A stretch of DNA of 64,000 bases. Origin: an uncultured Planctomycetia bacterium. Lineage in GTDB: Bacteria > Omnitrophota > Gorgyraeia > JABMRG01 > JAFGKX01. Where the stretch lies: the NCBI GenBank assembly GCA_964570585.1, contig CAZMYR010000001.1, positions 17,441-81,440 of the forward strand, given 5' to 3'. This document shows positions 3,001 to 62,806 of this stretch, piece by piece (within the stretch, counting starts at the first letter, position 1; each line of letters opens with the position of its first letter). The position numbers and the translations under genes are program-made. The notes under the pieces were generated by a model. That model saw only the letters and a program-made list of their open reading frames with translations, was not told the origin of the DNA and searched no databases.

Positions 3001-3344
3001 GCATGCGTTCCTATCCTAACCTCAGGGCTGGCAAAAGACTTGGGTAACTCATTGTATGCATCAAGGAATGCCCCGAATGTCCTATCTCCCATAACCATGG
3101 GGACCAGCATCTTATTGGTTATCTCCACTGCGCTCATTTCTGCTCCGCTTAAAGGTTCCATTCCGTGACCGCTAACCTCTGCCCCTCCACCAATGCGGGC
3201 ATTGTTACGGAGGTTTACCAGAAGATTGGACTTGCGGCCTCCAAAAATCAGAGTCTCCTCATTCTCTGCCATTATACTGCCTTCTGTCTGTTTCATTTCA
3301 TCCTTCACATAACCAAAACCTACCGGGCCCTCTAAAACATCCAT
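1..3344 (-). CDS. Partial large multidomain protein, >=1114 aa; the C-terminal part continues past the window start. Ends in a class-II (Zn) aldolase-like module.
   Basis: Hand translation of the minus strand, codons topping at positions congruent to 2 mod 3. Verified codon by codon for 3-1673 and 3120-3360, with spot checks at 2400-2460 and 2880-2940; no stop from the ATG at 3342-3344 to position 3. Starts MDVLEGPVGFGYVKDEMKQTEGS. A possible SD (AGGGGAA) lies 13 nt upstream. Class-II fructose/tagatose-bisphosphate aldolase family signatures: SLIEAGFTSIGIDAS (941-985), IATNNGSGHGIDY (~200-240), GVIKFNIATN (12-41). Linker motif AEAKSSSAGKLP at 1638-1673. Absent from the supplied ORF track because it runs off the edge. 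Confidence 0.55.
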   Translation of the reverse strand, partial: MDVLEGPVGFGYVKDEMKQTEGSIMAENEETLIFGGRKSNLLVNLRNNARIGGGAEVSGHGMEPLSGAEMSAVEITNKMLVPMVMGDRTFGAFLDAYNELPKSFASPEVRIGTHANFGRYEKQKVVNRVLERFKKYIGKLGFEEAGTRRQYQEGKRKYGSLYYIYKPAQPVDIKLTGMTLHNVSEIALDLIDGAKYYVKCDEGQYFVSFLSRKSNTQNEIITRVDGDSIEVRNAIATWMYGFFEQVDATDLLTEEAKEKGEAAIILSRDLWIVYEVLPRLAYQLLPKRIQKQLDRLAEQLIEETLQALAEGKIIKGLRVKNRDNLGYFYSFKGERKEGFDRIVHWTEKMLGSDNPLLIPEEQDLGEMVDTFLGYRLPDELARAIREIYGRSLKAKTAKYNTALNYDYDDKGRLGLELLAARYVTRRVKDKLAVMDVARLRKEEDFPYIEIGQKLLLKARYLFEVTDVNGAGIQAKFIQTGQAKPDFIEDGDSVIIHRLPVEKASHLVAGDEVPFLTNEIFITFDPNAILNDRHSGFLITKDASGIQPLPLELTGLPIAEAKSSSAGKLPEERIAEIRKWDRKTISGDEAAANKARQMLIQEAGGKVQQAITELIQHRDDQYIETVGSTGTATIIGPSEGLFTPGHDAFEAVKKARKALIAADIVSYNQIEGHLKAAMAQNAAVIFAVGRSQLSYALHEKRVVAYVREVAERIGFKNPLVLHGGRLQYEDYLFDAKAILKEEYEKENGEGTYNDKIRIDTIDVKILEAVQRRLNDNLSAERAIIKSDIESLIEAGFTSIGIDASTIYDGVAGEAVLDYYEKNGTPAEDLVVSLERNSMLPLEWGADFLKANPYDKDNMARLDHIRGTVISNMKKRNRAPGKIDSVVRNMNAAFGVLRKKARMYKDVRGPGVSEKSPVESISEDEVIAAYDKIMREVARATIAGDLSPEVSKSISEKQKLLLLPTSNAEETAHQLEYIDRIVDKHTPELTGHFGKVIEVGQVDKKVPNPRRDGKLEPKMTHPAVIRVMGEYLKLKNLSFDLIATNNGSGHGIDYDMKTLAPIPQVDKISPWLTEELQKEAERFNVAIVQPETIEGDMEELAVLAKAGVIKFNIATN

Positions 3345-3392
3345 ATGCAGACGGATTCCCTGCTTTAAATATTCTTGCTTCATCTTCTCCAC

Positions 3393-8702: not shown

Positions 8703-8893
8703 TTTCAAATCTCCTCTTTTTTTTGTCATAGTCTTTCATAAATCTTTGCTTTGTTATGCTTAAGTTATAAAAGTCTTTAATTACCCGAATACAGCGCAAC
8801 CCTTTTGCCTCGGTTTGTCCCCCTCGAAAATTTTTTATGGAGACAGTAAAATCGAGGCCAAAGGGTTGTTTAAACGCTATAACTCTATAACCC

Positions 8894-17800: not shown

Positions 17801-18772
17801 CTCTAATTCTTCTTCGGAAATCTTTTCTTGCCGATAATCCTCCTCCTTTTGTTCAAGGTAGTGGATTAATATAGTTTCTGAGGGTGTAAATCTTATCTGT
17901 ATCCCCTGTTCAAATATCTCTATATCGTTGCGGTTATAGCCATAATGGTCATTCCTCTCCAAAATCTCTTTTATCATCTCTCCAGTTTCACCGCTCCCCA
18001 TGAAATATACTTTAACCCGGGCACTCTTATCTTTGGTTGCTTCTCTCAGTTCCTCTTGTGAACGTTTCGCTTCTGCTATCTTAAGCTGCACAAACCCATA
18101 AAGCTGGTCTGGATTATCCGAGTTTAATTCAGGTATAGCAAATACAAATCCGGCCCTCATCTCGCCTTTTGTCCGTGTGCTTAATCCTCCTGCAGAAGAC
18201 CCAAAAGACGCAGGTATTCTACTGCCACGTTCTCTGAGTTCATGCAGTCGCCTTTCTTCCATATTCATAATATCTATAGGGCCTCTCCTACCGGTGGGAT
18301 CTGTGGTTGGCGGCGATTTAAGTTCCATCGGCCTTCTTATATTAACATCTTCTACGTAGTGGGCCTTCTGGGCAAAGTTTCGCATCGCCTCAAATGTCGG
18401 TAGCTCAGTCTCAAAGAAATGAAACTCAAGTAAGTCCCGGGCCTGCTTAAGTATGCGCTGCGCTTGTTCCTTCTTACCCTGTTTCAGCGCCTGCTCAGCC
18501 AAATCAAGCTGGGTGTTGTATATATTGTATAACTTCCCGTGTAAATGCTCAGGAATAACAACATCTGGTTTTATTGGACGGTTACCGCTTGAACTACTCT
18601 TCAGAGCTGCTACTATTGGCGGCCTACCTTCAAAAACCCCGACTGAAGAAGGCCTCAGATGGTCCTGAAGAATCACTGTAGTATCTACAGGAGCTGCCCA
18701 TAAGGTATTGGTTATAGTAAATGTTATCGCTATACTCAAGTTTAAAACCTTCGCTAATATCTCTTTAATCAT
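8894..18772 (-). CDS. Giant secreted multidomain protein (3292 aa) containing an APH/anomeric-sugar-kinase-like module followed by a sugar-1-phosphate nucleotidyltransferase module, plus at least 7 copies of the K-S-S-S-A-G linker motif.
   Basis: ORF track entry. ATG at 18770-18772 with GAGGAGGA 5 nt upstream. N-terminus MIKEILAKVLNLSIAITFTITNTLWAAPV is signal-peptide-like. Stop TAA at 8894-8896. Confidence 0.85.
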   Translation of the reverse strand: MIKEILAKVLNLSIAITFTITNTLWAAPVDTTVILQDHLRPSSVGVFEGRPPIVAALKSSSSGNRPIKPDVVIPEHLHGKLYNIYNTQLDLAEQALKQGKKEQAQRILKQARDLLEFHFFETELPTFEAMRNFAQKAHYVEDVNIRRPMELKSPPTTDPTGRRGPIDIMNMEERRLHELRERGSRIPASFGSSAGGLSTRTKGEMRAGFVFAIPELNSDNPDQLYGFVQLKIAEAKRSQEELREATKDKSARVKVYFMGSGETGEMIKEILERNDHYGYNRNDIEIFEQGIQIRFTPSETILIHYLEQKEEDYRQEKISEEELEALRRGIAIQRQHIGKPLRLSDGRLVTNPPGHWDFVRWLILNGILAKLKRDNINFVMNAHMNNTAGRLSAELKGLLAEQIEEAREDGRPVPVALVGVAENRNERGGLLLTAIDKETGESKMVIADKNDMTEEFKRHVSELDKDQLRTHFPYFHTGSILFSIDGLMETFELPDNYDKELTIEEITEQVTKKEPHAFINLKEEKDVDEHGRPVIYVGAQIERNISGFTFNLPYIPVIIDRYRSFVPIKTIEETDPTTITGRSRLREAADALRDKLAYLFDDIEYTDNVRRISNVASGLLRDDKTKVSNKAFADNVPENRKAIKRFLLEKANAPLLQVVLGIRPAAIQDDIKMIFNDEDEPTDFGKDFLYFLRVIGYKTGKKVNIKRIETPEGVNYYIYDEDILRYHGYINGYAPDYLNLTSALEDYLIVSDVAGGKGVFYELAAEDLPKYMKKFAETALDESRRLIKKGATMARARDITLGPLWIPSYRRPSALYRVLERQTEVLDEFGHRNIPIAVTSNVLTKGPGAKAEPMKDEEVEWVNKTLFGGKKTPKDIRAMKWGELDRMVIETFKKRGFNITYVDWDVRDNIVKKVIDTLTERYTDLWRQDKLREDILRQFKDVDSIRPQLERILADQFASNISGIRNFTIMLAMGLRMASVDDDSLPVMRVAKRKVLDDILEKRRQEVKDMRKKFFKELHTAAKQKIKSESDFVAYLRTHPTLSKKVTDVIRIYYGYSSPEEKETTALIPEKAGQIVQKNVDNTTRFNALLDTGLPERVVVSEDAILAHVDNKPEDKEKKFPEYHTYEYDRYTVDYLGVLDRALGAFAVNPNTGAMIVDKDKRGFAGSVFTGNVDEIRFLRNQCATTHFNHDRDKSADAQIDSFLERGAIDSDMLQEAALKVLYLARPEAVTALLDPQEDTTLSKRIFMCMNMFSFDDSVFPIPTIGQLYRREEPYFNYLVRVVTGRLMTWTRTVGGHHRLKTATRPNIPLQVRKEHSAMADWHILNRVVRRTLDRFEAMEKYDDRVDYKERMRYLGKEMIEEGKIYEIPDKRKEALHNLQARTIERINTLTKKAAAALKHGNKELHDSLNILAGEFVVEFLPPRTGVEKVEGTKITKHPVETTYRMEVDQTGAIIRLKPVIIIEDLVGDVKQKEDRVVYFEIDDSRPPHTVKRSDIKTTKMPAKHGDAVKQETRYSITLADGTEIVFDEMPEPNERRYMSGINDSTKDAFIEKVEKDVRKQMQSDGETLLFWPDVMDVARTTDEFKGVRQRIERSEVASAADTMVKASSAGEEGVVEKLTLCNKMGEKTFIIIGPIHGSEKLLLAEDEQSGQLFVIKKLETEGMERQADEIYEFLRRVPEDYPHIYRPVVMSAGKDKWAGLEDAKAIVYPYAEGVPFGEKFEGINEGAMGYRGIELIDTVINITDVASYLQGKDVPGTWNINTRNILIKPDGSPFLIDYSVMRVDPIGELEYLIYGLFTRPGYGEIENIIQKMKFVNATDLNKLIQSRFLALHYKVKDTKGGFSSIAEFKKELTELRNFLAKSVLRDLIRDGANYEKNKDTIRRLTLDILGIKDSAEFKLQRPVRVIVAAAGLGTRMTDKKSKVLQKVCGEPIIYHVLRQTAFLDKKPVVVVRSEQWRDALGKEGKGGNFAEIKEALDKGGFDAEYVFEDYIKGDGHAVLSAKENLAQFDGDLLVVWGDMAVLNPETVLWLTMIHQALGDVSFSIATTYKKDPYAPIMVDKNGRVIGSKKGAKLDFGCDDVGLFMGKAKDIFSTLEKFPKDSAGDFLNPYDSSANKKGEINFVQISAILAQNGTLSVIAPALADIREFQGVNDDNELSMAETYRKQMMFERNSQMPAVVLAKITPDAKITEEDERKIAIRFKTMAESLINATEKWEMAGWSMQYVQLAPGAKLALDHTRGENYVNVITGKLSNINRDAFAPAKQLRNTRVTEEYIEAGEKGAIVAIMVDTTPDAVVTEMSQTDITTGSRADLLNWVNCNTYGWGEHFDNLAFYNLKGIEIINGEEKKVCYIQFWTAGQGVNCADHDHSELTKDTTFGEIHFCMRNGTGKGGMVYYNESGKPAYLPLPRGHAHGPFWGFDPETGKPVTTAGGVVAYGQHRWEGGGSFIELGKPNRYDLWAVFELVPEVAIIPVAGKSSSAGKIVRIGDVGIKVEDITRENLANNGLVFAHIKENFPFDNFEKLSREARSVGDISLNERMIQSMFEHTPFEITGCFRMPGIDNAYISFLKAELSGFADIQILMRIKGRRSLEAYIAHLTKEQMERIKDKPALAHNIAAQNVLERNIRLMAQIQESTKSSSAGAKEQKSVTEIFSSLLKTLHAINYIPEIPSAGDYTFRNMGANTRWSSVKIKQGKLIFLKSGIDTSAVIFGPGSLYMETDKPGFKIGHKWWEYKGDNPLVDVRIDKKGSIYAIVKQEVIAQLTEDWKSDYAAKYLPPSEDLPLTLVSELDTAAISKLLPKPISTSKSSSSGVILAGEEVKVIEPEILVRLALDIPMNDVRASRLLLLYNVLIGFKKQVSKLGYDQQFIKDAKLGQKGLLLLQCDDFNITLLSLKETEGAYILLYQVRDLQNMLEGFMPVAALVQKIGDKSAEAGIAILTGKQIVELQKQNLVAGPAPRKELLKRLPDAEKILVRRAGAKYTKAEKAYAKKVQAFAMDDMMVGREKSSDKPNKSSSAGNRALAELNRGLLNAENILLDALVKETTQVPGEVELLNDSLLTESLQKLTQLSAKATRLKVETTLTSAEEELIQLKIATQRSVIEFARVCAPIARIESEGTIIVDANAIPDIKQRMAVISMLKDHRLRDALEYALSFKDKGQVTKKTQIVLLADVNRQTLNRKKTILISDKQQLADVKLFKIGVKKDDILLPMAELIAVARGLLSLNEDNFNQLFPAIKKMYQQYTQNTIEAIVEQALREGTWSVFELIITTLPGVEKLSQEEIERLQRQAWAALIAA
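12380..13080 (-). other. Sugar-1-phosphate nucleotidyltransferase (NTP_transferase fold) module inside the 3292-aa protein
   Basis: VIVAAAGLGTRM verified at 13021-13074. This is the G-x-G-T-R glycine-rich loop of GlmU, RmlA and MurU-type nucleotidyltransferases. Downstream LLVVWGDMAVL fits the family. Boundaries are approximate. Confidence 0.55.
13380..13700 (-). other. Protein-kinase-like / aminoglycoside-phosphotransferase-fold sugar kinase module inside the 3292-aa protein
   Basis: Translation PGTWNINTRNILIKPDGSPFLIDYSVMRVDPIGELEY (verified at 13451-13510). It resembles the HGDxxxxNxxxxxxxxxxxIDxE catalytic/Mg loop of APH, choline-kinase and AmgK-type kinases. Boundaries are approximate. 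Confidence 0.4.
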
Positions 18773-19161: not shown

Positions 19162-22100
19162 CTATGCGGCGGCATTTATGAATTGGACAATTCTAAAATC
19201 AGCATCGGGCTTCAGATATCTTCTGTCCGTCCTATCTGCATCTTGCACCTTGTCGCCTTCAGTGGCTTTTGGTTCAGGTTCCTGTCTGGTGGTATCACTG
19301 GATAAATCCTTTCTACCTAATAATCTGGCTAACCCGCCACTTACGCTGAGTTGACCAGCTGCTCCTTCTCCGGAAATATCTGGAATTCCAAATTGGGCCA
19401 GATTTTTATTACTGAACTCGGGACGGCCTGTAACATCAATAACTCTGCCAATACCTTCTGGAAAAGAAGGTATTGTTGTCTTCTCATCCGGAAGCTCTAC
19501 TTCAAGAGTTACCAGCCCCTCAAGTTTTCCATAGTATCGGTCTGTTTCTGCCGTTAATCCGTCTTTAAGGGGAACGCAATATCTATCCTTAACAATAACT
19601 CTTTCGTTCGCAAGAGGCCCAAGTCTTTCATAAGTTTCAGCTGATATCGGAATTTCTATTTCTCTTCTTGAAATTCCTTCTCCTATCTTAATGGTAAAGA
19701 AATATTTAGTGCCTTTTTGCCTAATTCTTACTTCCGTATCGCCTTCTATGAATAGATAACGTTGAATAATCCTTGCCGGTGTATAAGAATTCAAAAATTC
19801 CGGAAAATCAAAAAGTAGAAACTTCCTTTCTATCTCCAGGCCTTCTTCTTTTGCCTTAAGCTGAGTTGCAATCTTTTCTAAAATCTCCTTAAGCAAAGCC
19901 TGCCTTAGTCCGACATCATCTATAAGTCCGGTTAGAATATCTGTTATTCTCAAATATAAATCTCTTATATGTTCATTTTTCCAGACGTCTTCTTTAGGCG
20001 GTACCAAAACTGTTTCTTCCCCACTCAACTCTCCGTCAGGCCTCTTTCTTTCAACGATTAACTTAGAGCCTGCTCGTAAGTTTCCCTCATTATCAAGACC
20101 AAGCACGGCATAGACCACAGGCGCATTCATAGGAACGCTTTCCGGATCCTTAACTGCACAATATCCTTCTCTGCCCATAGAACCATCCCTATCGACCAGG
20201 ATAGGCTCGGTATTTATCTGCTTAAAACCAGTAATCTCACCGACATACCTCATAAATTGTGCAGCCGGCCTCATATTTATCTCGGTGTTACCATCAGGTA
20301 AAACCTTTGTTCCAACGTTAATGGGCTTAATCTCCACATGGGTCGTCATTCTGTTGGTTGCATTCTTTACCTTTTCCAAAAGCCCTGCCTGAGAAATCTG
20401 CGCATATTCCTCTAAATTCAAATCAAATAATCTTAAGATTGAATTAACCTTAATATAAAATTGATTGCTGCTAAAATTATCTCCTGGAAGCGGCTGGTCC
20501 AAATTCATATCCTTGCCTTTGCTTAAGACATGGACAAATGTTCCGCCTTTTTCTACTTCACCCTTAATGCCAGGCTTTAGCCTTTTTCCTTTGAAAATAA
20601 TACTCAGTTTATCTCCTTCTAACTTTAGCTCTATACCTTTTGGGAGCTTGGATGACCTTATAATTTTCCCTTTTCTTGCGATAACCCTAAATTCTTTATC
20701 CTCTCCTTGGAAACAAGCAGGGTCAGTAGACCGAAAACTACCGAATATCTTATCGTCCTTGTTTATACTATAAACGGTGTTCTTCTCTATCAGAAGAGTC
20801 AAGATATCGACATCTTTCTTTCTCATAAGATAAGCGGCCTTGGCCGGATCCAGCATACCACCTACATCATCGCCATTTGCTATATGAAGTACTTTAGCGC
20901 CTCTCTGGGCCAACTCGAATAATCTCCTGCTTAAGACCAGCTTGGCAATGATATCGAAATGGCCAACCGGCTTACCGGTATACCCGCCGTCGTCATTTCT
21001 GAATATATCTCCCATATCGCCATTATCGGATAACCATTGTTCTACATTTGCATCAGCATCTTTTCCGTGAGGCAGGTTATATTTTTTACTATCTAAAGGG
21101 GCACCTGAAGCTCTTATGTCTTTATCTGTCGGATTAACCCTGGGTATCTCCCCCTGGGCATATAAGTATAAATCATTCGGAGAATAAATCCCGTATCCGG
21201 CTACCCTTTTCCCAAGATAACCGATATTATTACCACTGCCCATAATCGCCAAGGGTATATATCCCCGGCGAGCTTTTTTAACCAGGTATTTTAAATACAT
21301 CATCTTTACTTCAACGCTGCTAAATAGCCTTCCTGCTATCTTCCATATCGGGGCAAGGAGCTTCAACTTCTGTGATTCTGGTATCTTTACCTTATACCCA
21401 TAGAACCTGCCGGAAGTGCCACCGCCCGGAATTACTTCAGCAATCTCTTCGTTCTCCACCATTTCCATCCCTTCATCATCAAGTTCCTGTATATTCATTC
21501 CGCTTTCTGAAACCGCATCTTCAAAACTCCTGACCTTACTTTTTGGCGGGGCAATCTCTGACTCAGGAAAGCTGCTCTTTTCGACACTAAGCTTACCTGT
21601 TTTATATTGTCTTTGTAATCCTAAAAATTCCTCAAAATCTACAGAAGCAGAAGTATCAGGGTCATCTTCATTAAGAGGAGGAAAATACTTCTTTATTATC
21701 TCTAAAGCCTCTTGAGGGTCTTTCTTTTTTGTCAACTCAAAGATAGTGTGCGAATCGTATTTTTTTAGCCTGGGCTCATATATCCTGACCATCGGGTCGC
21801 GTAACAGGTACTTAATAAATGGGCAAGAATAACCGTTATCAATCAACAATCTTCCAAAAGACGTCTCTTCTATTGGAATATCAAAGATTGAATGCATTTC
21901 GCTAACTGCCTCTAATGGTCCAGAACTCAGGTGAGCTACGTTCTTCTGTCCATTAAGCTGTCTTTTGTCTGATGGGTCTATACCAAGAGGAAGTTTTCCC
22001 AAAACAGCATCCCGTCTAATGCTGCCGGCTATATTATTACCTCTGGGATTATTATCATCACCTAATAACCCTATCCTGCTCTCCTGCCAGGTAGCGCTCT

Positions 22101-24864
22101 TATTATTTGCATTCCTGATTATAATCGCAATCGTCTTTGTCCCTGAATTCTCTTTAAATAGTCTAAATAGGCTTGGCACATAGCCGTTCATTACCAAAGT
22201 AGGCCGGCCATTGTTTATCCTTGGGTCTTTTACAGGAAAGATATTTCTTGCATGCCCGACTTTATTTAGGCCAAAACATAATCCGTTTCTAAACCATGCT
22301 ATACTCTCTCCGTCGTCTCCCAAAAAAGCTTTACTAAGAACTAACTCCTTATCTTTCTTCCTTAGGCGAATCCAGTCTCCTTCTACGGCTATCTCATCGA
22401 TGGAGAATCGTCTCTTAAGCTCTTCAAAAGATATATCCGGCCTTGACACATTCCAAAGTTCAGTAATATCTTCCTCCGATAAACCTTTATTAAGAAGTTC
22501 GGCTGCAGGCATAACCATATCCTCGCTGAAAGGCTCATCAAAGAAGAACTCAAAATCTGGCGTATTATAAAGCTTTCCTATATTATACATAACAGTCGGC
22601 GGAAATTCCCATGAGATATATCCTTGGTAAGCTTCCTGGTATAAAACAGATATCTTCTCAGGATATTTTTTAAAATAAGCCCCATCAAAAACTCTCATCC
22701 CAACTATTTCATATCCAAAATATTGCACCCTTCTTAAAATATCTTCCACCGTAGCATGGTTTGATGTAAATGGCGGTTTCAATAATAATACCGACTCTTT
22801 GGCAGGTTTGCTTACAGATGGTATAAGCGCGCCAACAGAAAGTTCATCAGTGCCATCTTTTTTTGAGGAGGCAACTGTATCAGTCTCGCCCATAACCTTC
22901 TCAAGAAGTTCTCTTGATAATACCGATTCTTCCCCAGCCAGCTTTTCAGGGGAAGCCTCTGGTAATTGAATATAAGCCATCCTGCTGGTTTGAAAGACCA
23001 TATCCAGGGCAGCCATATCCTGGGCCCTCTGTCTCTCAATATCGCCGGCACCCTTATTGTAATTGTAGGGCCTAACCTGGCTATATACATATACATTCTT
23101 ACCTTCTACATACTTTATGTTGAAGTCTTCAAAATACTCTGCGCAGTGAATGCATAATGGAGTACTGCTGGATATATCTATTAGCCTTTCATACACAATG
23201 TCCTTTTTCTCTTCTTCACTCATCCTTTGGTTAGAAATTCTTCTGGTCTTGATCTGGCCGGTATCGATATTTCGAAATCTTACCAGAACGCCGCCATCCT
23301 CCAAATCAACCCCTGCCAAAAGCTCTACGCAAGGTATGCCTTCATCATAGGATATTATCCTGGCAATCGAATGAGCCATCTTAGCGCCTCTTTCGGCACA
23401 TTTTGATGGGCACATATTTCTTGGCCTATAAGGAATTTTGCTCATCCAGTCCGTCTTATGCCTCCGGCAATAGGGCTGACCGATGGCATTAGAAATTATA
23501 GAGCAAGGGATTACATTGATAGCTATATCGCTAAGCTCTTCTTTTCTAAAACCCCTCTCTATCAATAAACCTTTATACAGCTGTTTGCACTCTTGCAATT
23601 TTTCTTCCGCCAATGCTGGAATCTTTGATTCATCTTCTCCCATCTCCCTAAGAGCATCTTTAATGGCCTCTTTAGACTCTTCTGGGGTAAACAGATTAAA
23701 ATGATTAAGGAATTGGAATCCGCTGCTTCCATCGACTGCATAATACCGCCTGCCTGCAACCTGGTCTTTTTCCACCATTATCTCAATCGAGCCTACTGGA
23801 TTATACGGACAGGTCGTGCAACCTCGATTGGCATTGGCAAGCTTTAATAATTGCTGAAGAGCAGGCATCTCCTCAGTCGCCTTTGAATCACTCCTGTAAT
23901 CTACAAGAGAAATATTGGTATATAGCGGTATGTATTTCATTCCGTAGGGCAGTGTCTCTCTGAGCCTGGCATCAAAACTTCTCTCAAATCCCTCCCTAAC
24001 AAAAACTATTTTGTAATATATATCTCCATTCTCTCTCAAAAGTACCAGTTTGCCATTAAATCCTAAACAATTCTTTGGCATAAAGGTATGAATCTTGTAT
24101 TTTGCATCGCCGGTTACAAATCTACAAAGCTGTTCAATCAGCTCTCCAACACTATCAGTAGATATCAGCGCTTCTATCTCTTGCCTGACCTCATCCAGGT
24201 ATTCTGCTTTTTTAAGTAAGACAGCCCCTCTTCTTGTTTTATAATCTTGTGAGGGAGTAAATTCAACAACATCTACTCCTTCTAAACTGGTCAAACTACG
24301 TAAAGAGGCCATCAGAGATTCTGCTTTTTCCTCTGGTAGTTTTTCGTCCTCGGGTAAGTCTAAACTGATACCATAAACTTCTCTTAGTTTATTTACATCT
24401 GGATTTCCTCTGTTTTTAAGTAAGAATTGCCAGATAGTAGAGGGGTTGTATTTCTGCCATGACTGTCTTATTGCGGGTATGTTACAAAAAAGAGAGCACC
24501 ATACCCTGATATCCTCTTGAGAGGTTGCCCTGGAGGCTAACATTCCCATAACATTCAAGGCTTCGGATGTAATTTCAACAGTTGGCTGTTTTATCTTACC
24601 AAAGGTCAATTCAGGATTGGCTTTCAAAAATGAGCTGTGAACCTCAAATATTCTGCCCACCCTATGATAAGCATCAGCTGTACTCAGTCTCCTTAATTCA
24701 CGATTAATAGCGCTGCAATGCTTCTGAAAGATATCGTCGCCTAAATGACCAGGAAGCTGTATACCCGTGGCGCATGGGCGTAGATAGCCCTCTCCGGGAT
24801 AGACCGGTATGGCCAGTTGGTTAATAGCAAATGTTACAATTAGAATAACTTGTACGATTCTCAT
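19162..24864 (-). CDS. Large secreted multidomain protein (1900 aa) containing a UDP-sugar pyrophosphorylase (UDPGP family)-like module
   Basis: ORF track entry. ATG at 24862-24864, stop TAG at 19162-19164. N-terminus MRIVQVILIVTFAINQLAIPV is signal-like. The region around 20300-21300 reads LHIANGDDVGGMLD and PVGHFDIIAKL, which resemble the NVDNLGA and GHGD motifs of eukaryotic-type UTP-sugar-1-P uridylyltransferases. This is a family-level similarity from memory only. Confidence 0.8.
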   Translation of the reverse strand: MRIVQVILIVTFAINQLAIPVYPGEGYLRPCATGIQLPGHLGDDIFQKHCSAINRELRRLSTADAYHRVGRIFEVHSSFLKANPELTFGKIKQPTVEITSEALNVMGMLASRATSQEDIRVWCSLFCNIPAIRQSWQKYNPSTIWQFLLKNRGNPDVNKLREVYGISLDLPEDEKLPEEKAESLMASLRSLTSLEGVDVVEFTPSQDYKTRRGAVLLKKAEYLDEVRQEIEALISTDSVGELIEQLCRFVTGDAKYKIHTFMPKNCLGFNGKLVLLRENGDIYYKIVFVREGFERSFDARLRETLPYGMKYIPLYTNISLVDYRSDSKATEEMPALQQLLKLANANRGCTTCPYNPVGSIEIMVEKDQVAGRRYYAVDGSSGFQFLNHFNLFTPEESKEAIKDALREMGEDESKIPALAEEKLQECKQLYKGLLIERGFRKEELSDIAINVIPCSIISNAIGQPYCRRHKTDWMSKIPYRPRNMCPSKCAERGAKMAHSIARIISYDEGIPCVELLAGVDLEDGGVLVRFRNIDTGQIKTRRISNQRMSEEEKKDIVYERLIDISSSTPLCIHCAEYFEDFNIKYVEGKNVYVYSQVRPYNYNKGAGDIERQRAQDMAALDMVFQTSRMAYIQLPEASPEKLAGEESVLSRELLEKVMGETDTVASSKKDGTDELSVGALIPSVSKPAKESVLLLKPPFTSNHATVEDILRRVQYFGYEIVGMRVFDGAYFKKYPEKISVLYQEAYQGYISWEFPPTVMYNIGKLYNTPDFEFFFDEPFSEDMVMPAAELLNKGLSEEDITELWNVSRPDISFEELKRRFSIDEIAVEGDWIRLRKKDKELVLSKAFLGDDGESIAWFRNGLCFGLNKVGHARNIFPVKDPRINNGRPTLVMNGYVPSLFRLFKENSGTKTIAIIIRNANNKSATWQESRIGLLGDDNNPRGNNIAGSIRRDAVLGKLPLGIDPSDKRQLNGQKNVAHLSSGPLEAVSEMHSIFDIPIEETSFGRLLIDNGYSCPFIKYLLRDPMVRIYEPRLKKYDSHTIFELTKKKDPQEALEIIKKYFPPLNEDDPDTSASVDFEEFLGLQRQYKTGKLSVEKSSFPESEIAPPKSKVRSFEDAVSESGMNIQELDDEGMEMVENEEIAEVIPGGGTSGRFYGYKVKIPESQKLKLLAPIWKIAGRLFSSVEVKMMYLKYLVKKARRGYIPLAIMGSGNNIGYLGKRVAGYGIYSPNDLYLYAQGEIPRVNPTDKDIRASGAPLDSKKYNLPHGKDADANVEQWLSDNGDMGDIFRNDDGGYTGKPVGHFDIIAKLVLSRRLFELAQRGAKVLHIANGDDVGGMLDPAKAAYLMRKKDVDILTLLIEKNTVYSINKDDKIFGSFRSTDPACFQGEDKEFRVIARKGKIIRSSKLPKGIELKLEGDKLSIIFKGKRLKPGIKGEVEKGGTFVHVLSKGKDMNLDQPLPGDNFSSNQFYIKVNSILRLFDLNLEEYAQISQAGLLEKVKNATNRMTTHVEIKPINVGTKVLPDGNTEINMRPAAQFMRYVGEITGFKQINTEPILVDRDGSMGREGYCAVKDPESVPMNAPVVYAVLGLDNEGNLRAGSKLIVERKRPDGELSGEETVLVPPKEDVWKNEHIRDLYLRITDILTGLIDDVGLRQALLKEILEKIATQLKAKEEGLEIERKFLLFDFPEFLNSYTPARIIQRYLFIEGDTEVRIRQKGTKYFFTIKIGEGISRREIEIPISAETYERLGPLANERVIVKDRYCVPLKDGLTAETDRYYGKLEGLVTLEVELPDEKTTIPSFPEGIGRVIDVTGRPEFSNKNLAQFGIPDISGEGAAGQLSVSGGLARLLGRKDLSSDTTRQEPEPKATEGDKVQDADRTDRRYLKPDADFRIVQFINAAA

Positions 24865-57106: not shown

Positions 57107-57815
57107 CTGACCCTAACCCCCTTGGAGCATTAGTCCCCTTAGAACTTAAATCTGAATATCGGCCTGTTTTTAGGGTAAGCCTTCAAAAGATTTATGATGT
57201 TTTTTTCACATTTTTTAAAGACTTTTTTAACTGGCGTAATAAGTATACCATATAAATGCCTGATTGTCAAGGGTTCCTGTGATTTTTTTGCTTGGTCTGC
57301 CCTGCTAAGAAAACTCAGCTTTTGGCAGGTCCGGAGATGCTGTTTAGAAGCTTTTCAAATGCTGTTTATCGACTGAACTTTAATTAATCTTTGTTATAGC
57401 TTATATATTGTATTGCAAATATTATAAGCCCAAACCTCACTGATGTCAAGAATTTTTTTAAAAAATACAGACGTTTCCCAACTCAATCGGGAAACTGCCC
57501 CATTTTCAATCGGGAAAGTGTACCCTGCCATGATACACCAAAACCGAGGAGCATTATGGAGCGAGACATTAGGAATTTTTTGCTATACAAAACGCCATAA
57601 GCGAAGCAATCACCTATGAGCAGTGATAGCATTTTTTTAGCATTTTACGAACGAGAATGAGCGAGCCCCGAAGGTTCGGGGCGAGCGAAGGAAAGTTTGT
57701 GTTTGAGCCCGAACACATCATAAGATGTGAGGGCGAGTTAAATTTTCCCGAAGTGAGTAAAATGCGTGCCAAAGGCAAAAAATGCGTGCTGCGAGTAGGT
57801 GATTGCTGAGCACGT

Positions 57816-57837
57816 AACCGTATCATAACCGTATCAT
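57816..57837. repeat. Perfect tandem direct repeat 2 x AACCGTATCAT
   Basis: Seen directly. A second direct pair AAAATGCGTGC is at ~57759-57769 and ~57779-57789. A hairpin GCCCCGAAGGTTCGGGGC is at 57665-57682. Confidence 0.5.
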
Positions 57838-57889
57838 TGTCGTAACTCATTGTTTTTATTAATGATAAAAGAGCTCAAAAAAACCGGCA

Positions 57890-57917
57890 TCTCAAAATTC
57901 TATATAGAATTTTGAGA
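57890..57917. promoter_or_regulatory. Perfect 28-bp palindrome TCTCAAAATTCTATATAGAATTTTGAGA (candidate dimeric-repressor operator)
   Basis: Its reverse complement is identical to itself. It lies in the ~1-kb spacer between the divergent giant gene and the brnTA operon. Confidence 0.45.
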
Positions 57918-58074
57918 CAATTGTCCTAAAAATTCAAGTATTTTTAAAGAATTGCTCATCGGGATACTCCTTCTCGGTAAAATTATGGGAAAAGGTGAAA
58001 ACGCCCGCACGGTAGCATTAAGGTTAAGTTAACTTTTGTGCCAGGAGTTAGGGGGGGGTATCAGGTTGAGAATA

Positions 58075-58100
58075 AAAAAATTAAAATTAAAATTAAAATT
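58075..58100 (+). promoter_or_regulatory. (AAAATT)n A-tract array immediately upstream of the -35 box (UP-element-like)
   Basis: aaaaaattaaaattaaaattaaaatt. It is preceded by a G8 homopolymer at 58051-58058. Confidence 0.35.
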
Positions 58101-58104
58101 GTTG

Positions 58105-58133
58105 TTGACAAAGGGCACACATTGTGTTATATT
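58105..58133 (+). promoter_or_regulatory. Sigma70-type promoter TTGACA-17 nt-TATATT driving brnTA
   Basis: -35 box at 58105-58110 and -10 box at 58128-58133, with consensus spacing. Confidence 0.55.
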
Positions 58134-58438
58134 TATATGCATTGAGGTATTATACGTGGAATGATGAAAAAAATAAAAAGTTAATCGTAGAACGAAATAT
58201 CTCTTTTGAAGAAATAATTTTCTATATTGAAAAAGGTTGTTTGCTTGATACTTTAGACCACCCAAACAAGAAAAGATATAAGAGGCAACGCATATTTGTG
58301 GTGAGAGTAAAAAATTATGTTTACCTTGTACCTTTTGTTGAGAAAGAGAAAAACATTTTTTTAAAGACAATTATTCCTAGTCGTAAGGCTACGCGAATAT
58401 ATTTAAAGGAGGATAAAAAAAATGGCCAAACTAGATAA
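58124..58438 (+). CDS. brnT: BrnT-family (DUF497) ribonuclease toxin
   Basis: WNDEKNKKLIVERNISFEEIIFYI ... IFVVRV ... KTIIPSRKATRIYLKE matches BrnT hallmarks (WD..K...N..KH.ISFEE and RIISARKAT). The track start is GTG at 58124, which overlaps the -10 box. An in-frame TTG at 58142 is the more likely, leaderless start. Stop TAA at 58436-58438. Confidence 0.75.
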   Translation: MLYLYALRYYTWNDEKNKKLIVERNISFEEIIFYIEKGCLLDTLDHPNKKRYKRQRIFVVRVKNYVYLVPFVEKEKNIFLKTIIPSRKATRIYLKEDKKNGQTR

Positions 58439-58694
58439 AAAAGAAAAAGCAATCCTTAAATCCTATGAGAAGGGAGAGTGGCGGTCAGTAAGGAACTTAA
58501 AATCAAAATTGAAAGATTATAAGATGTACGCAAGGGCAACTCTTAAAAAAGATAAACGAATAAATATTAGAATACCTTCACAGGATTTAGAAGGAATTCA
58601 AAGAATAGCTATTGAGGAAGGGCTTCCTTACCAAACTTTTATAACAAGCATTCTTCATAAATATGTTACAGGAAGGCTTAGGAAGGCCGGCTAA
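58422..58694 (+). CDS. brnA: BrnA-family antitoxin
   Basis: AAAGGAGGA lies 8 nt upstream of the ATG. The start overlaps the brnT end by 17 nt. KRINIRIPSQDLEGIQRIAIEEGLPYQTFITSILHKYVTG is close to the BrnA consensus (RISIRL...DLE.IK..A.EEGIPYQTLI.S.IHKYV.G). Toxin-first gene order is typical of BrnTA. Confidence 0.8.
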   Translation: MAKLDKKEKAILKSYEKGEWRSVRNLKSKLKDYKMYARATLKKDKRINIRIPSQDLEGIQRIAIEEGLPYQTFITSILHKYVTGRLRKAG

Positions 58695-58695
58695 T

Positions 58696-58716
58696 AAAAG
58701 GGGACCGTCCCCTTTT
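58696..58716 (+). terminator. Rho-independent terminator after brnA (AAAAGGGGACCGTCCCCTTTT)
   Basis: 5-bp GC stem with a 3-nt loop, flanked by an A-run and a T-run. Confidence 0.65.
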
Positions 58717-58729
58717 ACCTAAATTTAAA

Positions 58730-59100
58730 AACTTCTATTATATCTCAAATGGTCCTGGAGGCCTTGACAGTCAACTACCCCACGCCTAAAGGTGGAGGGC
58801 TTGTGAGAATAAGCCTGGTTGACTAGGGGGCATTGAAAGATGCAGAAGTTAAGAGAAAGAAGGATAACCAACACACCTACGGTTATTACGCACGACCGTA
58901 GCAACTGTGGTCTGTCATTAAACAGCCCTGAGGGTAGGGACAGTGTGGCAGGCTTAAAAACCTCTCTTAACAGCCCCGATGCGTCTCTAACTGCGAGTCC
59001 CGCCCTTTTACAAAAGGGCGGGACGAGAGGACACGCAGGACAGAACCCGAGGGTATCTGTCGTTTACCCCCACACCAAAAGTTTTGGTGTGGGGGTTTAT
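58730..59100 (+). ncRNA. Candidate omega-RNA (OMEGA guide/scaffold RNA) upstream of, and overlapping, the iscB start
   Basis: Strongly structured. Perfect 13-bp hairpins GTCCCGCCCTTTT/ACAAAAGGGCGGGAC (58997-59024) and CCCCCACACCAAAAG/TTTTGGTGTGGGGG (59067-59095). The track's 5' extension of the iscB ORF (58840-59088) translates to low-complexity, non-protein-like sequence. The extent is approximate. Confidence 0.4.
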
Positions 59101-60315
59101 GTCCTCAGTAAAAAGGGCAAGCCACTCATGCCCTGTTCGCCAAGAAAGGCAAGAGTGCTTCTCAAAGAGACCAAGGCAAGGGTTGTAAAGAGGGCTCCCT
59201 TCACAATAAAGCTTAATATCGCCACGGGAGAAGCAGAGCAACCGATTACTCTTGGTGTTGACAGCGGATACAACTCATTGGGCTTATCAGCAGTATCAAA
59301 AGATAAAGAGCTTTATAGAGCTCAAGTAAGGCTAAGAGAAGACTTGGTAAAACTTAATTCAGAACGAAGGCAGTATCGCCGGGGGAGGAGATACCGCAAA
59401 ACATGGTACAGAAAGCCCAGATTTCTTAACCGAAAGAAACCCCCAGGATGGTTGGCACCTTCCATCCAGCACAAATTGGACTCACATATCAAATTAATCA
59501 CCAAGGCCAAAGAGATACTGCCCATTTCAAAGATTAGTATTGAAGTGGCAGCATTTGACATCCAAAAGATTAAGAACCCTGACATTGAAGGCGAGGGTTA
59601 TCAAAAAGGCAAACAGGCGGGATTCTGGAATGTAAGGGAGTACGCACTTCACCGGGATAACCACCAGTGTCAGCACTGTAATGGCAAATCCAAATCCTCG
59701 GTATTGGAGCTACACCATATCATATCAAGACAGACAGGAGGAGACAGACCTGAAAATCTGATAACTTTATGTTCTATCTGCCACGATAAGGTATCAAAAG
59801 GCCAATTAGAACTTAAAGCCGAACCATCCAAGGGATTCAAAGCTGAAACCTTTATGTCAACAGTTAGATGGAAGTTGATTAATAAGCTGCGAGACTCTGG
59901 TAATATGGTAACACACACTTATGGTTATGTAACAAAAAGCAAGAGGATAGAGTTGGGGATACCAAAAAATCACACCAACGATGCCTTTGTGATAGCAGGT
60001 GGGACTACTCAGAAAAGGACAACATCGGAAGATTTCATCAAACAGGTCAGAAGGAGTAACCGTAAGTTGTTTAAAGGAGACAGGAGTCAGATAAGGAATA
60101 CGGCCGAGAGGTTTGTCTGTGGATTTCAGAGGTTTGATAAAGTGCTATACAATGGTGTGGAGTGCTTCATTTTTGGCAGAAGAAAAACAGGCTATTTTCA
60201 TCTAAGAAAATTGGATGGAACTAAAATTCATTCTTCAGCAAAACAAACAAAGCTAACTCTGCTTGAGAGCGCAAAAACTTTACTGATAGAAAGAAGGCTG
60301 GCTCTCCTCCCCTGA
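59089..60315 (+). CDS. iscB: IscB RNA-guided nuclease (PLMP domain, split RuvC with inserted HNH)
   Basis: The proposed GTG start at 59089 gives MGVYVLSKKGKPLMPCSPRKARVLL, the PLMP motif. Other motifs: RuvC-I LGVDSGYNSLGLSAV; Arg-rich bridge helix RRQYRRGRRYRKTWYRKPRF; RuvC-II ISIEVAAFD; HNH CQHCNG...LELHHI...NLITLCSICH; RuvC-III NHTNDAFVIAGG. The track ORF is 58840..60315; stop TGA at 60313-60315. Confidence 0.75.
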   Translation: MGVYVLSKKGKPLMPCSPRKARVLLKETKARVVKRAPFTIKLNIATGEAEQPITLGVDSGYNSLGLSAVSKDKELYRAQVRLREDLVKLNSERRQYRRGRRYRKTWYRKPRFLNRKKPPGWLAPSIQHKLDSHIKLITKAKEILPISKISIEVAAFDIQKIKNPDIEGEGYQKGKQAGFWNVREYALHRDNHQCQHCNGKSKSSVLELHHIISRQTGGDRPENLITLCSICHDKVSKGQLELKAEPSKGFKAETFMSTVRWKLINKLRDSGNMVTHTYGYVTKSKRIELGIPKNHTNDAFVIAGGTTQKRTTSEDFIKQVRRSNRKLFKGDRSQIRNTAERFVCGFQRFDKVLYNGVECFIFGRRKTGYFHLRKLDGTKIHSSAKQTKLTLLESAKTLLIERRLALLP

Positions 60316-60346
60316 ACCTTTTGGCAGGGGTTTGCGAGCCGGAGTT

Positions 60347-60374
60347 TTTCAATGAAGCGATTATAGGGTATAAT
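60347..60374 (+). promoter_or_regulatory. Candidate promoter of fic (TTCAAT-16-TATAAT), bracketed by 13-bp direct repeats AATGAAGCGATTA at 60351-60363 and 60385-60397
   Basis: Consensus -10 TATAAT at 60369-60374. The repeats are seen directly. Confidence 0.35.
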
Positions 60375-60407
60375 TATATCAGAAAATGAAGCGATTAGAG
60401 GTGCTAA

Positions 60408-61535
60408 ATGATTTACATATGGAAGCAAAAAAAATGGCCTCAGTTAAAATGGCAAAGCGATAAACTGCTGCCATCTTTAAGCCAGGCACGCTTCCTTCAA
60501 GGGGAACTGTTAAGCAAGATCCGTTCTCTGGGCTTAAACCAGGGCAAGGAACCAAGTGCTGAAATACTGGTAGAGGAGACTGTTAAAACCGCTGCTATTG
60601 AAGGAGTCCGGCTGGATAAGGATGCTGTGCGTTCATCCGTAGCGAGAAGATTAGGCCTGCCTACAGCAGGTTTAAAATCACCAGATAAAGACGCAGAAGG
60701 CCTTGTCAGCGTGCTCCTGGATGCTACTAGAAATTATAAAAAACCACTTACTGTCAAACGCTTAAAATCATGGCAGGCGGCACTATTTCCGACAGGTTAC
60801 TCAGGGCTTTCTAAGATAAGGGTAGGAAAATGGCGTGGAAAAAGTCCGATGCAAGTAGTCTCAGGACCTATTGGTCGTAAGAGAGTTCATTTTGAGGCCC
60901 CGCCATCAGAAAGAATAGATACAGAAATAAAAAAGTTCATAAAATGGTGGCAGAAACCCCCAAAGAACTTAGACAGCTTATTAAGGGCAGGCATTGCCCA
61001 TTTCTATTTTGTTACCATTCATCCTTTTGAAGATGGCAATGGCCGTATAGCCAGGGCATTAACAGATATGGCCTTATCTCAGGATGAGAATCTTCCAAAG
61101 AGGTATTATTCTCTTTCAACCAGTATAATGGCAGGAAGAAAGGCATATTACGATATCTTGGAGAAATGCCAAAGAGGCACGCTTGATATAACAGAATGGC
61201 TGTTGTGGTTCCTGAAATTCTATTTAAAGGCAATTGAGGAATCAGAAAAGGCTATTCAAAAATCATTGCAAAAGGCAGAATTTTGGCAAAAGCATGCTCA
61301 AACCAACCTGAATAATAACCAACGGAAAGTAATTAATCGCTTGCTTGATGCCGGTCCAAGTGGCTTTATAGGAGGCTTAACCACGCGAAAATACGTAGCA
61401 ATGACAAAGACAAGCAGGGCCACGGCTTATAGGGATATCTCTGATCTGGTAAGAAAGAAGATACTGGCTCGCTCTAAAGCTAAAGGCAGAAGCGTCTCCT
61501 ACGAGCTCATCTTTGTTGAAAAATTACAGACGTAA
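60408..61535 (+). CDS. fic: Fic/DOC family protein (AMP-transferase-type Fic domain with DUF4172-like N-terminus and C-terminal wHTH-like tail)
   Basis: The Fic active-site motif HPFEDGNGRIARAL (HxFx[DE]GNGRxxR) is present. The N-terminus MIYIWKQKKWPQLKW is typical of DUF4172-Fic proteins. GAGGTG lies 6 nt upstream of the ATG. Confidence 0.8.
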   Translation: MIYIWKQKKWPQLKWQSDKLLPSLSQARFLQGELLSKIRSLGLNQGKEPSAEILVEETVKTAAIEGVRLDKDAVRSSVARRLGLPTAGLKSPDKDAEGLVSVLLDATRNYKKPLTVKRLKSWQAALFPTGYSGLSKIRVGKWRGKSPMQVVSGPIGRKRVHFEAPPSERIDTEIKKFIKWWQKPPKNLDSLLRAGIAHFYFVTIHPFEDGNGRIARALTDMALSQDENLPKRYYSLSTSIMAGRKAYYDILEKCQRGTLDITEWLLWFLKFYLKAIEESEKAIQKSLQKAEFWQKHAQTNLNNNQRKVINRLLDAGPSGFIGGLTTRKYVAMTKTSRATAYRDISDLVRKKILARSKAKGRSVSYELIFVEKLQT

Positions 61536-61621
61536 AATATATCGCATCGTTAAATTTACTCTACGGCTGGACATAACCCGACCCGACCGTAATGGCTAGG
61601 GGGGGCATTTTTGGTCAGGTA

Positions 61622-62806
61622 TTATTTTTCTTTTTTCTTTTCTTGCACAAATTTCCTCTGAAGATAATCTACGACTTGTTTAAACTTGTAAAGCCTGTCG
61701 GCATCCTCATCGGGAATATCAATGCCAAGCTCTTCTTCAAAGGTCATTGCGATTTCAATGCTGGCTAAAGAATCCACACCTAAATCCTTTACAAGATGGG
61801 CATTATCATGGATTAAGTCTTTTGATATGCCTAATTGTTCCGCGATAATTTTTCTGGCTACATCCGGAATATCTTCTTTCGTTATCTCTTTTTTCTTTTC
61901 TTCCGGCGGTTTAGGAGACGCTTTATATTTTAGTCCGAGCGCCGGTATTCTAACAGCTTTATCTGTCTTAAAATATAAGTTGTTTTTTATGGCAGTGTCT
62001 CTTACTAATCTACCGAGTTTATCTAACCTAACATCAACTGCCGGAGGAAGATTTGAGAGATTAATCCCTTCTGTCTTCTCGTCCTCTGGTTTATTACTGT
62101 AAACAATTATATCTTTCGGTTTATCGTCCGATTTAGTTATGGCTTTATATATCTCACTTTTAGCCCCTAGCACTATTTGATTCCCTAATACAATATCAGG
62201 CCTGAAATTGTGAAGCTCTTTTTTTATGTCTTCTTCTACCCCCCCTATTTTGCTTGAATCAAATGTTTTGACGCCTACGAACAACATCTGCATTGAGTAT
62301 TCACCGCCGCATTTTTCTTTACTCTCAAAATATATGTTTTTAGGAACAAAGTAGTTAAGAGCAAGGTCTATAAACAAAAGTTTCGCCTTCGGCATTATAT
62401 AAGGATCATTATATATAGGGATTTCTTCTTTTTTAATTATTCTTCTGCCTTCTAAAACATCTTTTGCTGTCTCAACTATAGTATTGGGGCTAAATGGTTT
62501 TGCCATAAAGGCATCATATTTAAGCCCCTTTACTTTTTCTTCATATTGTTCACCATATCCTGTTAAAATTACAACTTTTGTTTTTGGGTACTTTTCGTTT
62601 ATTATCTCTAAAACACCAGGGCCGTCTAAACCTTTCATTTTCATATCTAATATGACAAGGTCGATACCTTTTGATTCTAGTTTCTTCACGGCTTCTTCGC
62701 CGGATAAGGCAATAGCTACACTATGGCCTTCTTTTGAAAAGAAATACTCAAGGGTAGATGTAAGTTCTTTTTCATCGTCTATAACAAGGATATTTTCATT
62801 TGGCAT
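61622..62806 (-). CDS. Response regulator receiver domain fused to an unknown middle domain and a C-terminal acyl-carrier-protein (phosphopantetheine-binding) domain
   Basis: REC domain: ILVIDDE...DLVILDMKMKGLDG...KPF. C-terminus: IAEQLGISKDLIHDNAHLVKDLGVDSLASIEIAMTFEEELGIDI is a classic ACP helix-II DSL motif. No DNA-binding output domain was recognised. Confidence 0.7.
   Translation of the reverse strand: MPNENILVIDDEKELTSTLEYFFSKEGHSVAIALSGEEAVKKLESKGIDLVILDMKMKGLDGPGVLEIINEKYPKTKVVILTGYGEQYEEKVKGLKYDAFMAKPFSPNTIVETAKDVLEGRRIIKKEEIPIYNDPYIMPKAKLLFIDLALNYFVPKNIYFESKEKCGGEYSMQMLFVGVKTFDSSKIGGVEEDIKKELHNFRPDIVLGNQIVLGAKSEIYKAITKSDDKPKDIIVYSNKPEDEKTEGINLSNLPPAVDVRLDKLGRLVRDTAIKNNLYFKTDKAVRIPALGLKYKASPKPPEEKKKEITKEDIPDVARKIIAEQLGISKDLIHDNAHLVKDLGVDSLASIEIAMTFEEELGIDIPDEDADRLYKFKQVVDYLQRKFVQEKKKEK

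Follow-up and report, generated by a model that had tools for sequence, protein, structure and literature searches.

The question raised by positions 58770-60351 of the 64-kb stretch of contig CAZMYR010000001.1 analysed here (the window) is whether this 1.58-kb segment is a mobile element built around an RNA-guided nuclease, and whether the copy still looks intact. An original prediction, made from the letters and their open reading frames (ORFs), had proposed an IscB nuclease preceded by a structured RNA. [quoted passage not shown] The families of protein and RNA, the order and strand in which the two lie, the sharp boundaries, a flank resembling a target-adjacent motif (TAM), and a window free of tnpA are all consistent with a non-autonomous IscB/OMEGA element, which appears to be a genuine, intact-looking copy of a known selfish mobile-element type and otherwise ordinary.

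The nuclease is encoded as follows.

58840-60315, plus strand: iscB ORF as publicly annotated, 491 amino acids (aa) from an ATG; the conserved IscB part is 59089-60315, 408 aa.
59260-59262 (D), 59542-59544 (E), 59716-59718 (HNH His), 59971-59973 (H) and 59980-59982 (D), plus strand: catalytic codons.

Pfam family RRXRR (PF14239) is matched from residue 86 of the 491-aa ORF (~nt 59095) with an E-value of 1.2e-63 and 214.6 bits against a cutoff of 25, Pfam HNH (PF01844) scores 35.7 bits against a cutoff of 21.4, and the 408-aa protein read from 59089 matches the NCBIfam guided_IscB equivalog NF040563 at 359 bits, with a cutoff of 175. Solved IscB structures match the 408-aa protein in phmmer at E 5e-47 to 5e-46 (OgeuIscB, E 5e-46). 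In the numbering of this form, the KPLMP motif (residues 11-15) aligns with the PLMP motif of OgeuIscB, the RuvC residues D58, E152, H295, and D298 align with OgeuIscB D61, E193, H340, and D343, and the HNH residue H210, within the motif CQHC...ELHH...NLITLCSICH, aligns with OgeuIscB H247; D61, E193, H247, H340, and D343 are all named as catalytic residues of OgeuIscB (PMC9640706). The Arg-rich bridge helix reads RRQYRRGRRYRKTWYRKPRF. Across 27 homologues there is no variation at E152, H210, H295, and D298, and conservation of D58 is at least 90%; the nearest relative shares 90% identity without a frameshift. The hallmarks on which the IscB assignment had first been based (KPLMP, RuvC-I/II/III, bridge helix, and HNH) are all present, and substitution of the catalytic residues, which would speak against it, was looked for and not found.

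Pairwise differences among relatives by codon position are 0.113/0.087/0.305 in the iscB core, a strong third-position excess that indicates probable purifying selection. IscB and IsrB structures make up the whole top 10 of the Foldseek matches in the PDB (E 1.9e-18 to 4.6e-10), with IscB structures matched over the full length (E 1.9e-18). These were obtained with a poor global model (predicted local distance difference test (pLDDT) 60, predicted template modelling score (pTM) 0.39, template modelling (TM) score ~0.2) that serves for matches at family level and for the C-terminal barrel, but not for the geometry of the domains, and the first non-IscB match is Kae1. A putative C-terminal WED/TI region comprises five strands at residues 351-393 with pLDDT 80-92, within the same poor global model and not aligned to the IscBs of the PDB by phmmer. 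Some JGI records name IscB homologues (P0004, P0080, P0087, and P0092) “N6-L-threonylcarbamoyladenine synthase”, probably a mis-annotation stemming from the shared RNase-H-like/Kae1-type fold.

Directly upstream of the IscB domains lies the structured RNA.

58770-58991, plus strand: omegaRNA scaffold core (Rfam HEARO, RF02033), a covariance match that starts at the transposon end named right end (RE).
58992-59066, plus strand: 3' extension of the omegaRNA past the Rfam model, a stem with inserted hairpin 1, then the conserved terminal hairpin 59039-59061.

An omegaRNA upstream of IscB had been proposed, and a covariance-model search with cmscan bears this out, with HEARO, at 119.7 bits where the gathering score is 83 (E 2.7e-25; untruncated, covering model positions 1-211 of 211), as the sole Rfam match in the whole 64 kb. 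The match lies directly upstream of the iscB core on the same strand, the PLMP domain of IscB beginning at ~59095, and all of the 19 relatives tested likewise have a full-length HEARO match directly before iscB, at 85-132 bits. The common fold of 17 sequences (RNAalifold) comprises 62 pairs, 27 of which show compensatory changes, including those of a long-range GGGG:CCCC helix between 58826-58829 and 58974-58977, and region 58750-59100 has a folding energy of -148 kcal/mol (z = -6.0 against shuffles). The terminal hairpin of the extension also covaries, with CG<->UA at 7:7 and AU<->GC at 10:5 (alignment columns 310-332). The HEARO RNA, RF02033, is said to go back to Weinberg et al. in 2009. 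It has since been recognised as the omegaRNA of IscB (Meers et al.; Goltsman et al.), is experimentally established as the IscB guide in other members of the family (Meers et al.; PMC9640706; Goltsman et al.), and in its RF02033 form leaves out downstream structural elements of the RNA (Meers et al.).

The same nucleotides could be viewed as a mere 5' untranslated region or leader, or as the coding part of a 491-aa HNH protein, rather than as a guide RNA. The 249 nt before GTG 59089 do continue the IscB frame, without a stop, back to ATG 58840, the long form (491 aa, P0001) is called as a coding sequence in NCBI, ENA, and JGI records, and the frame is kept in relatives, so the earlier statement that this region translates to nonsense has to be withdrawn. 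However, a leader or coding role in place of a guide is scarcely tenable given the full HEARO covariance-model match, the 27 compensatory pairs, the experimentally known guide function of HEARO in other IscB systems, and the lack of any codon-position signature, with substitutions at the three codon positions of 58840-59088 being flat at 0.064/0.075/0.065. By this profile, 58840-59088 evolves as RNA, not as protein, and, with no Pfam match to the extension, we reject the latter as a real protein domain. Translation of the region and its role as omegaRNA are mutually compatible.

The limits of the element were defined by comparison with ten close relatives (L001, L045-L052, and L057; 78-88% nucleotide identity), each in a different gene neighbourhood, for example between the ATP synthase c and b subunits or between fumarase and RNase PH. 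For nine of the ten, blastn homology begins at 58770 (+/-1 nt), at GTCAACTACCCC, and in the same nine it stops at 60343-60356, except in L045 where it stops at 60312; the ends of L057, read directly, agree with those of the window element. The span originally given, 58726-60340, is thereby shifted at both sides, with the scaffold starting at 58770, not 58726, and the element ending at ~60351, not 60340. The features at and beyond these limits are the following.

58754-58769, plus strand: inferred omegaRNA guide in the 5' flank of the scaffold, CCTGGAGGCCTTGACA (16 nt shown; homology with the 10 relatives stops here).
60300-60351, plus strand: right-hand transposon end, left end (LE) in TnpA nomenclature, from the homology end and RNAalifold.
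60352-60356, plus strand: ATGAA, inferred TAM or TnpA target motif, in flanking DNA outside the element.
60369-60374, plus strand: TATAAT, -10 box of the split Fic promoter, from in-silico excision.

The left end is formed by the P1 stem of the omegaRNA, GTCAAC...GTTGAC, and the right end by a subterminal hairpin GGCTC...GAGCC with an inner stem CCCCTG...CAGGGG, followed by a T-rich tail to ...TTTTTCA. Among nine ends, the right-end hairpin (60300-60340) covaries, 5 of its 23 pairs showing a compensatory change (RNAalifold). In L046, L047, L049, L051, and L057 the iscB stop codon is the TGA of a terminal TGATGA/ATGA, so that some or all of it comes from the TAM in the flanking DNA, and the last ~12 iscB codons in those relatives are set by the transposon-end hairpin. 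The DNA after the right end reads ATGAA six times, and ATGAG, ATGAT, and ATGTA once each, making it ATGAA-like in 9 of 10 independent insertions. Since ATGAA corresponds, as reverse complement, to the GstIscB TAM, TTCAT (Meers et al.), and the omegaRNA region is bounded by RE (Meers et al.), the plus strand of the window is the TnpA bottom strand, with RE at 58770 and LE at ~60351.

The site of insertion can be placed more closely still, with in-silico deletion of 58770-60351 yielding TTGACA, a 17-nt spacer, and TATAAT (a 12/12 promoter match) 34 nt upstream of the start of the Fic gene. This 12/12 promoter arises only when the last base of the element is set at 60350-60352, and the flanks restore it only with ATGAA left out of the element. 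The reconstruction places the insertion in the spacer of the Fic promoter, with no base duplicated, and the ends common to copies at unrelated sites, together with flanks that join into an intact promoter, show no target-site duplication. The predicted empty site would then read ...TTGACA|ATGAAGCG..., with the joint ...CCTTGACA|ATGAAGCGATTA. The last 6 nt of the upstream flank are TTGACA (58764-58769), the orphaned -35 box of the Fic promoter, and by analogy with published IscB guides, which lie 5' of the scaffold and outside the transposon (PMC9640706; Meers et al.), we infer that this flank, CCTGGAGGCCTTGACA, is the guide. The locus thus offers a textbook case, in which a rebuilt promoter fixes the insertion site to the base and the putative guide holds the -35 box of the disrupted gene. 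The terminal TTTTCA of the element (60346-60351) now occupies the -35 position at the right spacing (10/12 match), and the Fic gene may be driven by this hybrid promoter or by transcription running on from iscB. The Fic -10 box is bracketed by two exact 13-nt direct copies of AATGAAGCGATTA (60351-60363 and 60385-60397), both containing ATGAA, that look like a pair of putative operator sites.

As had been predicted, no tnpA accompanies the element. A tblastn search of the window, 64 kb of a 113.8-kb contig, with one Y1 query only returned no Y1 TnpA (best E 1.5), and the 1.58-kb element is itself too short to house tnpA, although a tnpA may lie elsewhere in the genome; the element is therefore unable to move by itself and is non-autonomous, like most IscB loci. 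Relatives with 61-84% identity come from Clostridia, Desulfobacterota, Nitrospirota, Chlamydiota, Patescibacteria, and Methanoperedens, and close IscB relatives also from Dojkabacteria and Actinomycetota. With close relatives already spread over so many phyla, this is a widespread element type that crosses phyla freely, and its occurrence in one more, in a probable Omnitrophota genome, is expected and unremarkable. The proposal that IscB elements were new to giant-gene-bearing lineages stands to the extent that two papers on Omnitrophota giant genes do not mention IscB or TnpB, one of them reporting transposase-rich flanks, but as an argument for novelty it is weak given this distribution.

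Two features of the omegaRNA region set this copy apart from most of its relatives.

58998-59027, plus strand: hairpin 1, a 30-nt insertion with perfect 13-nt arms (58997-59009 / 59012-59024) and flanks CGAG...CGAG.
59067-59099, plus strand: hairpin 2, a 33-nt insertion with perfect 15-nt arms (59066-59080 / 59082-59096) and flanks TTTA...TTTA; it holds the in-frame GTG 59089.

Both palindromes had been noticed before and ascribed to the omegaRNA. The arms of hairpin 1 are indeed 13 nt long and perfect, and hairpin 2 is a perfect palindrome with the GTG in its 3' arm, its arms being 15 nt rather than the 13 nt first reported. As core omegaRNA features, however, neither holds, because they are insertions absent from most relatives. 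Hairpin 1 is missing in 15 of 17 aligned relatives, and in L057 another palindrome, likewise between CGAG flanks, takes its place. Hairpin 2 is common to L050 and L057, which show a C>T change together with the matching G>A, its site is occupied by an unrelated palindrome in L052, and it is missing from L001, L045-L047, L049, and L051. Across elements, the same two positions of the omegaRNA carry distinct perfect palindromes of 30-33 nt, each flanked by a 4-nt direct repeat (in L057 at ~275-310, in L052 at ~1880-1912, and also in L050). Their patchy distribution among near-identical elements suggests recurrent recent insertion events, and the two palindromes of the window are lineage-specific insertions, not core omegaRNA features.

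The position of the iscB start codon is bound up with these insertions. GTG 59089, originally put forward as the most plausible start, is in frame and at the canonical start position of the family, but it is only one of two candidates, and the comparative data favour, or are at least compatible with, ATG 58840. Among the 12 nearest relatives, picked on the IscB core alone, all 12 (including L001, L045-L052, L057, and L058) keep the IscB frame without a stop through the omegaRNA to a conserved internal ATG, whereas the other two frames contain 4-5 conserved and 9 lineage-specific stops in ten aligned relatives. All five independent indels are multiples of 3 (+12, +30, +33, +33, and +33), and frame continuity through the omegaRNA looks to be under selection. 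Other clades have an ATG three codons before the conserved Tyr, or a TTG/ATG six codons before it; in the window subclade that TTG is now CCG, with a compensatory change in the terminal hairpin, and in L045, L046, L047, L049, L051, and L052 the eight codons next to the PLMP N-terminus include neither ATG nor GTG nor TTG. GTG 59089 lies inside a perfect hairpin and lacks a Shine-Dalgarno motif. ATG 58840 is preceded at 9 nt by AGGGGG (AGGAGG in relatives, at 9-10 nt), which forms one strand of the omegaRNA long-range helix. We give the start at ATG 58840 inside the omegaRNA about an even chance, and consider that at GTG 59089 inside hairpin 2 somewhat less likely.

It is possible, if rather doubtful, that in this IscB subclade the omegaRNA scaffold doubles as the 5' coding region of iscB, with translation from the conserved AUG 58840. 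As the Shine-Dalgarno sequence of this AUG is itself a strand of the long-range helix, a given transcript could either fold into guide RNA or be translated. Such dual coding is in tension with the missing protein-like substitution pattern in 58840-59088. We found no description of a translation start inside an omegaRNA in the IscB/omegaRNA literature covered, which does not include the original HEARO paper. If true, guide-RNA scaffold and N-terminal coding region would share nucleotides, suggesting a built-in choice between guide and mRNA, and it would also count in practice, since the N-termini of these proteins differ by ~65-87 residues among public records. This frame-preserved overlap of iscB and omegaRNA is the one lead worth following here, and the only part of specialist interest.

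Several observations weigh against an intact element, and bear on whether the copy is instead a stranded, functionally dead relic that is IscB and omegaRNA by ancestry, and either no longer makes an active ribonucleoprotein or cannot be mobilised. Neither a second copy of the element nor one of its ends was found within the 64-kb window, so that a single copy is seen, without tnpA, and the joint pattern of the empty site was not found in public metagenomes, where the left flank alone gave two matches, both chance 20-21-mers without further similarity. In the window copy the right-end hairpin has lost two of its apical pairs, which could impair recognition by TnpA, and in the same altered apical part lies an early TGA at 60313, with which ~12 C-terminal residues of the closest relatives are lost. 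Furthermore, the two palindromes sit in the 3' part of the putative omegaRNA, one of them occluding the sole nearby canonical start in a subclade that has lost the TTG start of related clades, and two candidate starts remain. Against a dead relic, the ORF is unbroken with all catalytic residues intact, the 119.7 bits of the omegaRNA fall inside the 85-132 range of its relatives, the nearest relative is 90% identical with no frameshift, the insertions are in frame and stop-free, and homologues of the same length share the C-terminal end position. We rejected the early TGA as a damaging truncation, with the lost tail unconserved and several homologues ending at the same position, and the stop is probably harmless. 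Taken together, we regard a relic as unlikely, and favour an intact-looking, non-autonomous IscB element.

Work by Altae-Tran in 2021 reportedly forms part of the family background behind the mechanism proposed for this element. Following the family literature (Meers 2023; Kato 2022), a transcript starting in the upstream flank would yield the omegaRNA, its likely source being read-through from a same-strand toxin-antitoxin (TA) operon or a weak promoter in the flank. Of the latter, a promoter-like site at 58714-58741 reaches a 9/12 match only, no better than in shuffles, and in a promoter and terminator scan around the guide, sites were no commoner than in shuffles. The 5' ~16-20 nt of the omegaRNA would be flank sequence (...CCTGGAGGCCTTGACA) acting as guide, and the scaffold would be bound by IscB. 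TnpA provided in trans would excise the element, upon which the resealed donor joint, combining the guide match with ATGAA, would be cut by RuvC and HNH, and recombination with a sister copy would reinstate the element (Meers et al.).

The TA operon in question is a BrnT-like toxin/CopG-like antitoxin pair at 58124-58694, encoded by overlapping genes on the same strand as iscB, with Pfam scores just under gathering (31.3 against 34.5 bits, and 27.7 against 28). It has an 11/12 extended -10 promoter at 58105-58133 and is followed by a perfect hairpin with 11-nt arms at 58695-58717; the operon is directed towards the omegaRNA, whose transcript it could provide. The upstream genes are co-oriented with the element here and in L045-L052, in agreement with the published orientation bias (Meers et al.). 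Downstream lies a DUF4172-Fic gene (60408-61535). In a related strain (L053), whose flanks are 94-96% identical, a different 0.9-kb segment (5286-6175) with another BrnT-like gene replaces 57813-61585, which makes 57813-61585 (BrnT/CopG pair, IscB element, and Fic) a strain-variable island, with the 10,643-aa gene on one side and a two-component system on the other. L053 provides no empty site for the IscB element, the whole island being replaced.

This setting among TA and Fic genes of a strain-variable island would suit a domesticated RNA-guided nuclease with a host function in defence or regulation, comparable to a CRISPR-associated IscB or an early Cas9 rather than a transposon passenger, and CRISPR-associated IscBs do exist (PMC12660989). 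In the window, however, no CRISPR-like repeat family or array was found, and a CRISPR association was rejected on this ground. Furthermore, the IS-type boundaries, the covarying end hairpins, and a TAM flank common to copies at unrelated sites in many phyla are those of a transposon, and the guide position is taken by flank DNA (the -35 box of the disrupted promoter), as for a homing guide. Domestication is accordingly very improbable, and the element is better regarded as a selfish one.

Elsewhere in the window, three consecutive very large ORFs occupy the minus strand at 8894-18772 (3,292 aa), 19162-24864 (1,900 aa), and 25175-57106 (10,643 aa). Positions 1-8893 contain almost no listed ORF of at least 100 aa, and another large gene probably runs off the left window edge. 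The gene at 61622-62806 on the minus strand joins a response-regulator receiver domain with a PP-binding (acyl-carrier) domain, an unusual architecture. All three named homologues of this response regulator come from Candidatus Omnitrophota, two of them near full length, which agrees with the giant genes.

As an IscB element, the locus is of little weight, being one more uncharacterised member of a very large and well-studied family, and its protein is a compact (~408 aa) putative nuclease candidate with an inferable guide position and a predicted TAM (ATGAA). It is most similar to the systems of GstIscB (Geobacillus stearothermophilus, Meers et al. 2023) and OgeuIscB (PDB 7UTN/7XHT), with which it shares the order PLMP, RuvC-I, bridge helix, RuvC-II, HNH, RuvC-III, and a putative WED/TI, the catalytic residues, a HEARO-type omegaRNA directly upstream on the same strand and starting at RE, and a predicted flank-derived guide. 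The TAM of GstIscB, TTCAT, is the reverse complement of the 3' flank of the window element, ATGAA, and as in most IscB loci there is no adjacent tnpA. In contrast to OgeuIscB (496 aa), the window protein has ~400 aa and lacks a ~36-residue REC-linker insertion, query residue 108 aligning to OgeuIscB residue 148. The window omegaRNA differs from those of GstIscB and OgeuIscB in the two palindromes inserted in its 3' part, and the window subclade lacks a canonical start beside PLMP, its frame running through the omegaRNA. Compared with RF02033, the RNA has the same nested stems and long-range pairing, and runs ~75-100 nt past the model (58992 to ~59066).

Cas9 shares the RuvC fold, bridge helix, and HNH insert, with a weak match of the window protein to TIGR01865 over RuvC-I (E 1.3e-4; 20 bits, where the cutoff is 100). 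We rejected Cas9 as the identity of the protein, which has 408-491 aa compared with at least ~700 and no REC lobe, and is accompanied by neither a CRISPR array nor a trans-activating CRISPR RNA (tracrRNA). IsrB, which is among the PDB matches, shares the RuvC fold and bridge helix, and was rejected because the window protein has an HNH domain. The TnpB-omegaRNA (right end element RNA, reRNA) systems of IS200/IS605 and IS607 follow the same selfish logic, in which a transposon guide targets the donor joint by the TnpA target motif. TnpB, however, is a RuvC-only, Cas12-like nuclease whose RNA has its guide at the 3' side and overlaps the gene at its 3' end, whereas in the window element the RNA lies 5' of the gene, the guide is at its 5' end, and the gene, seen from the TnpA ends, is on the opposite strand.

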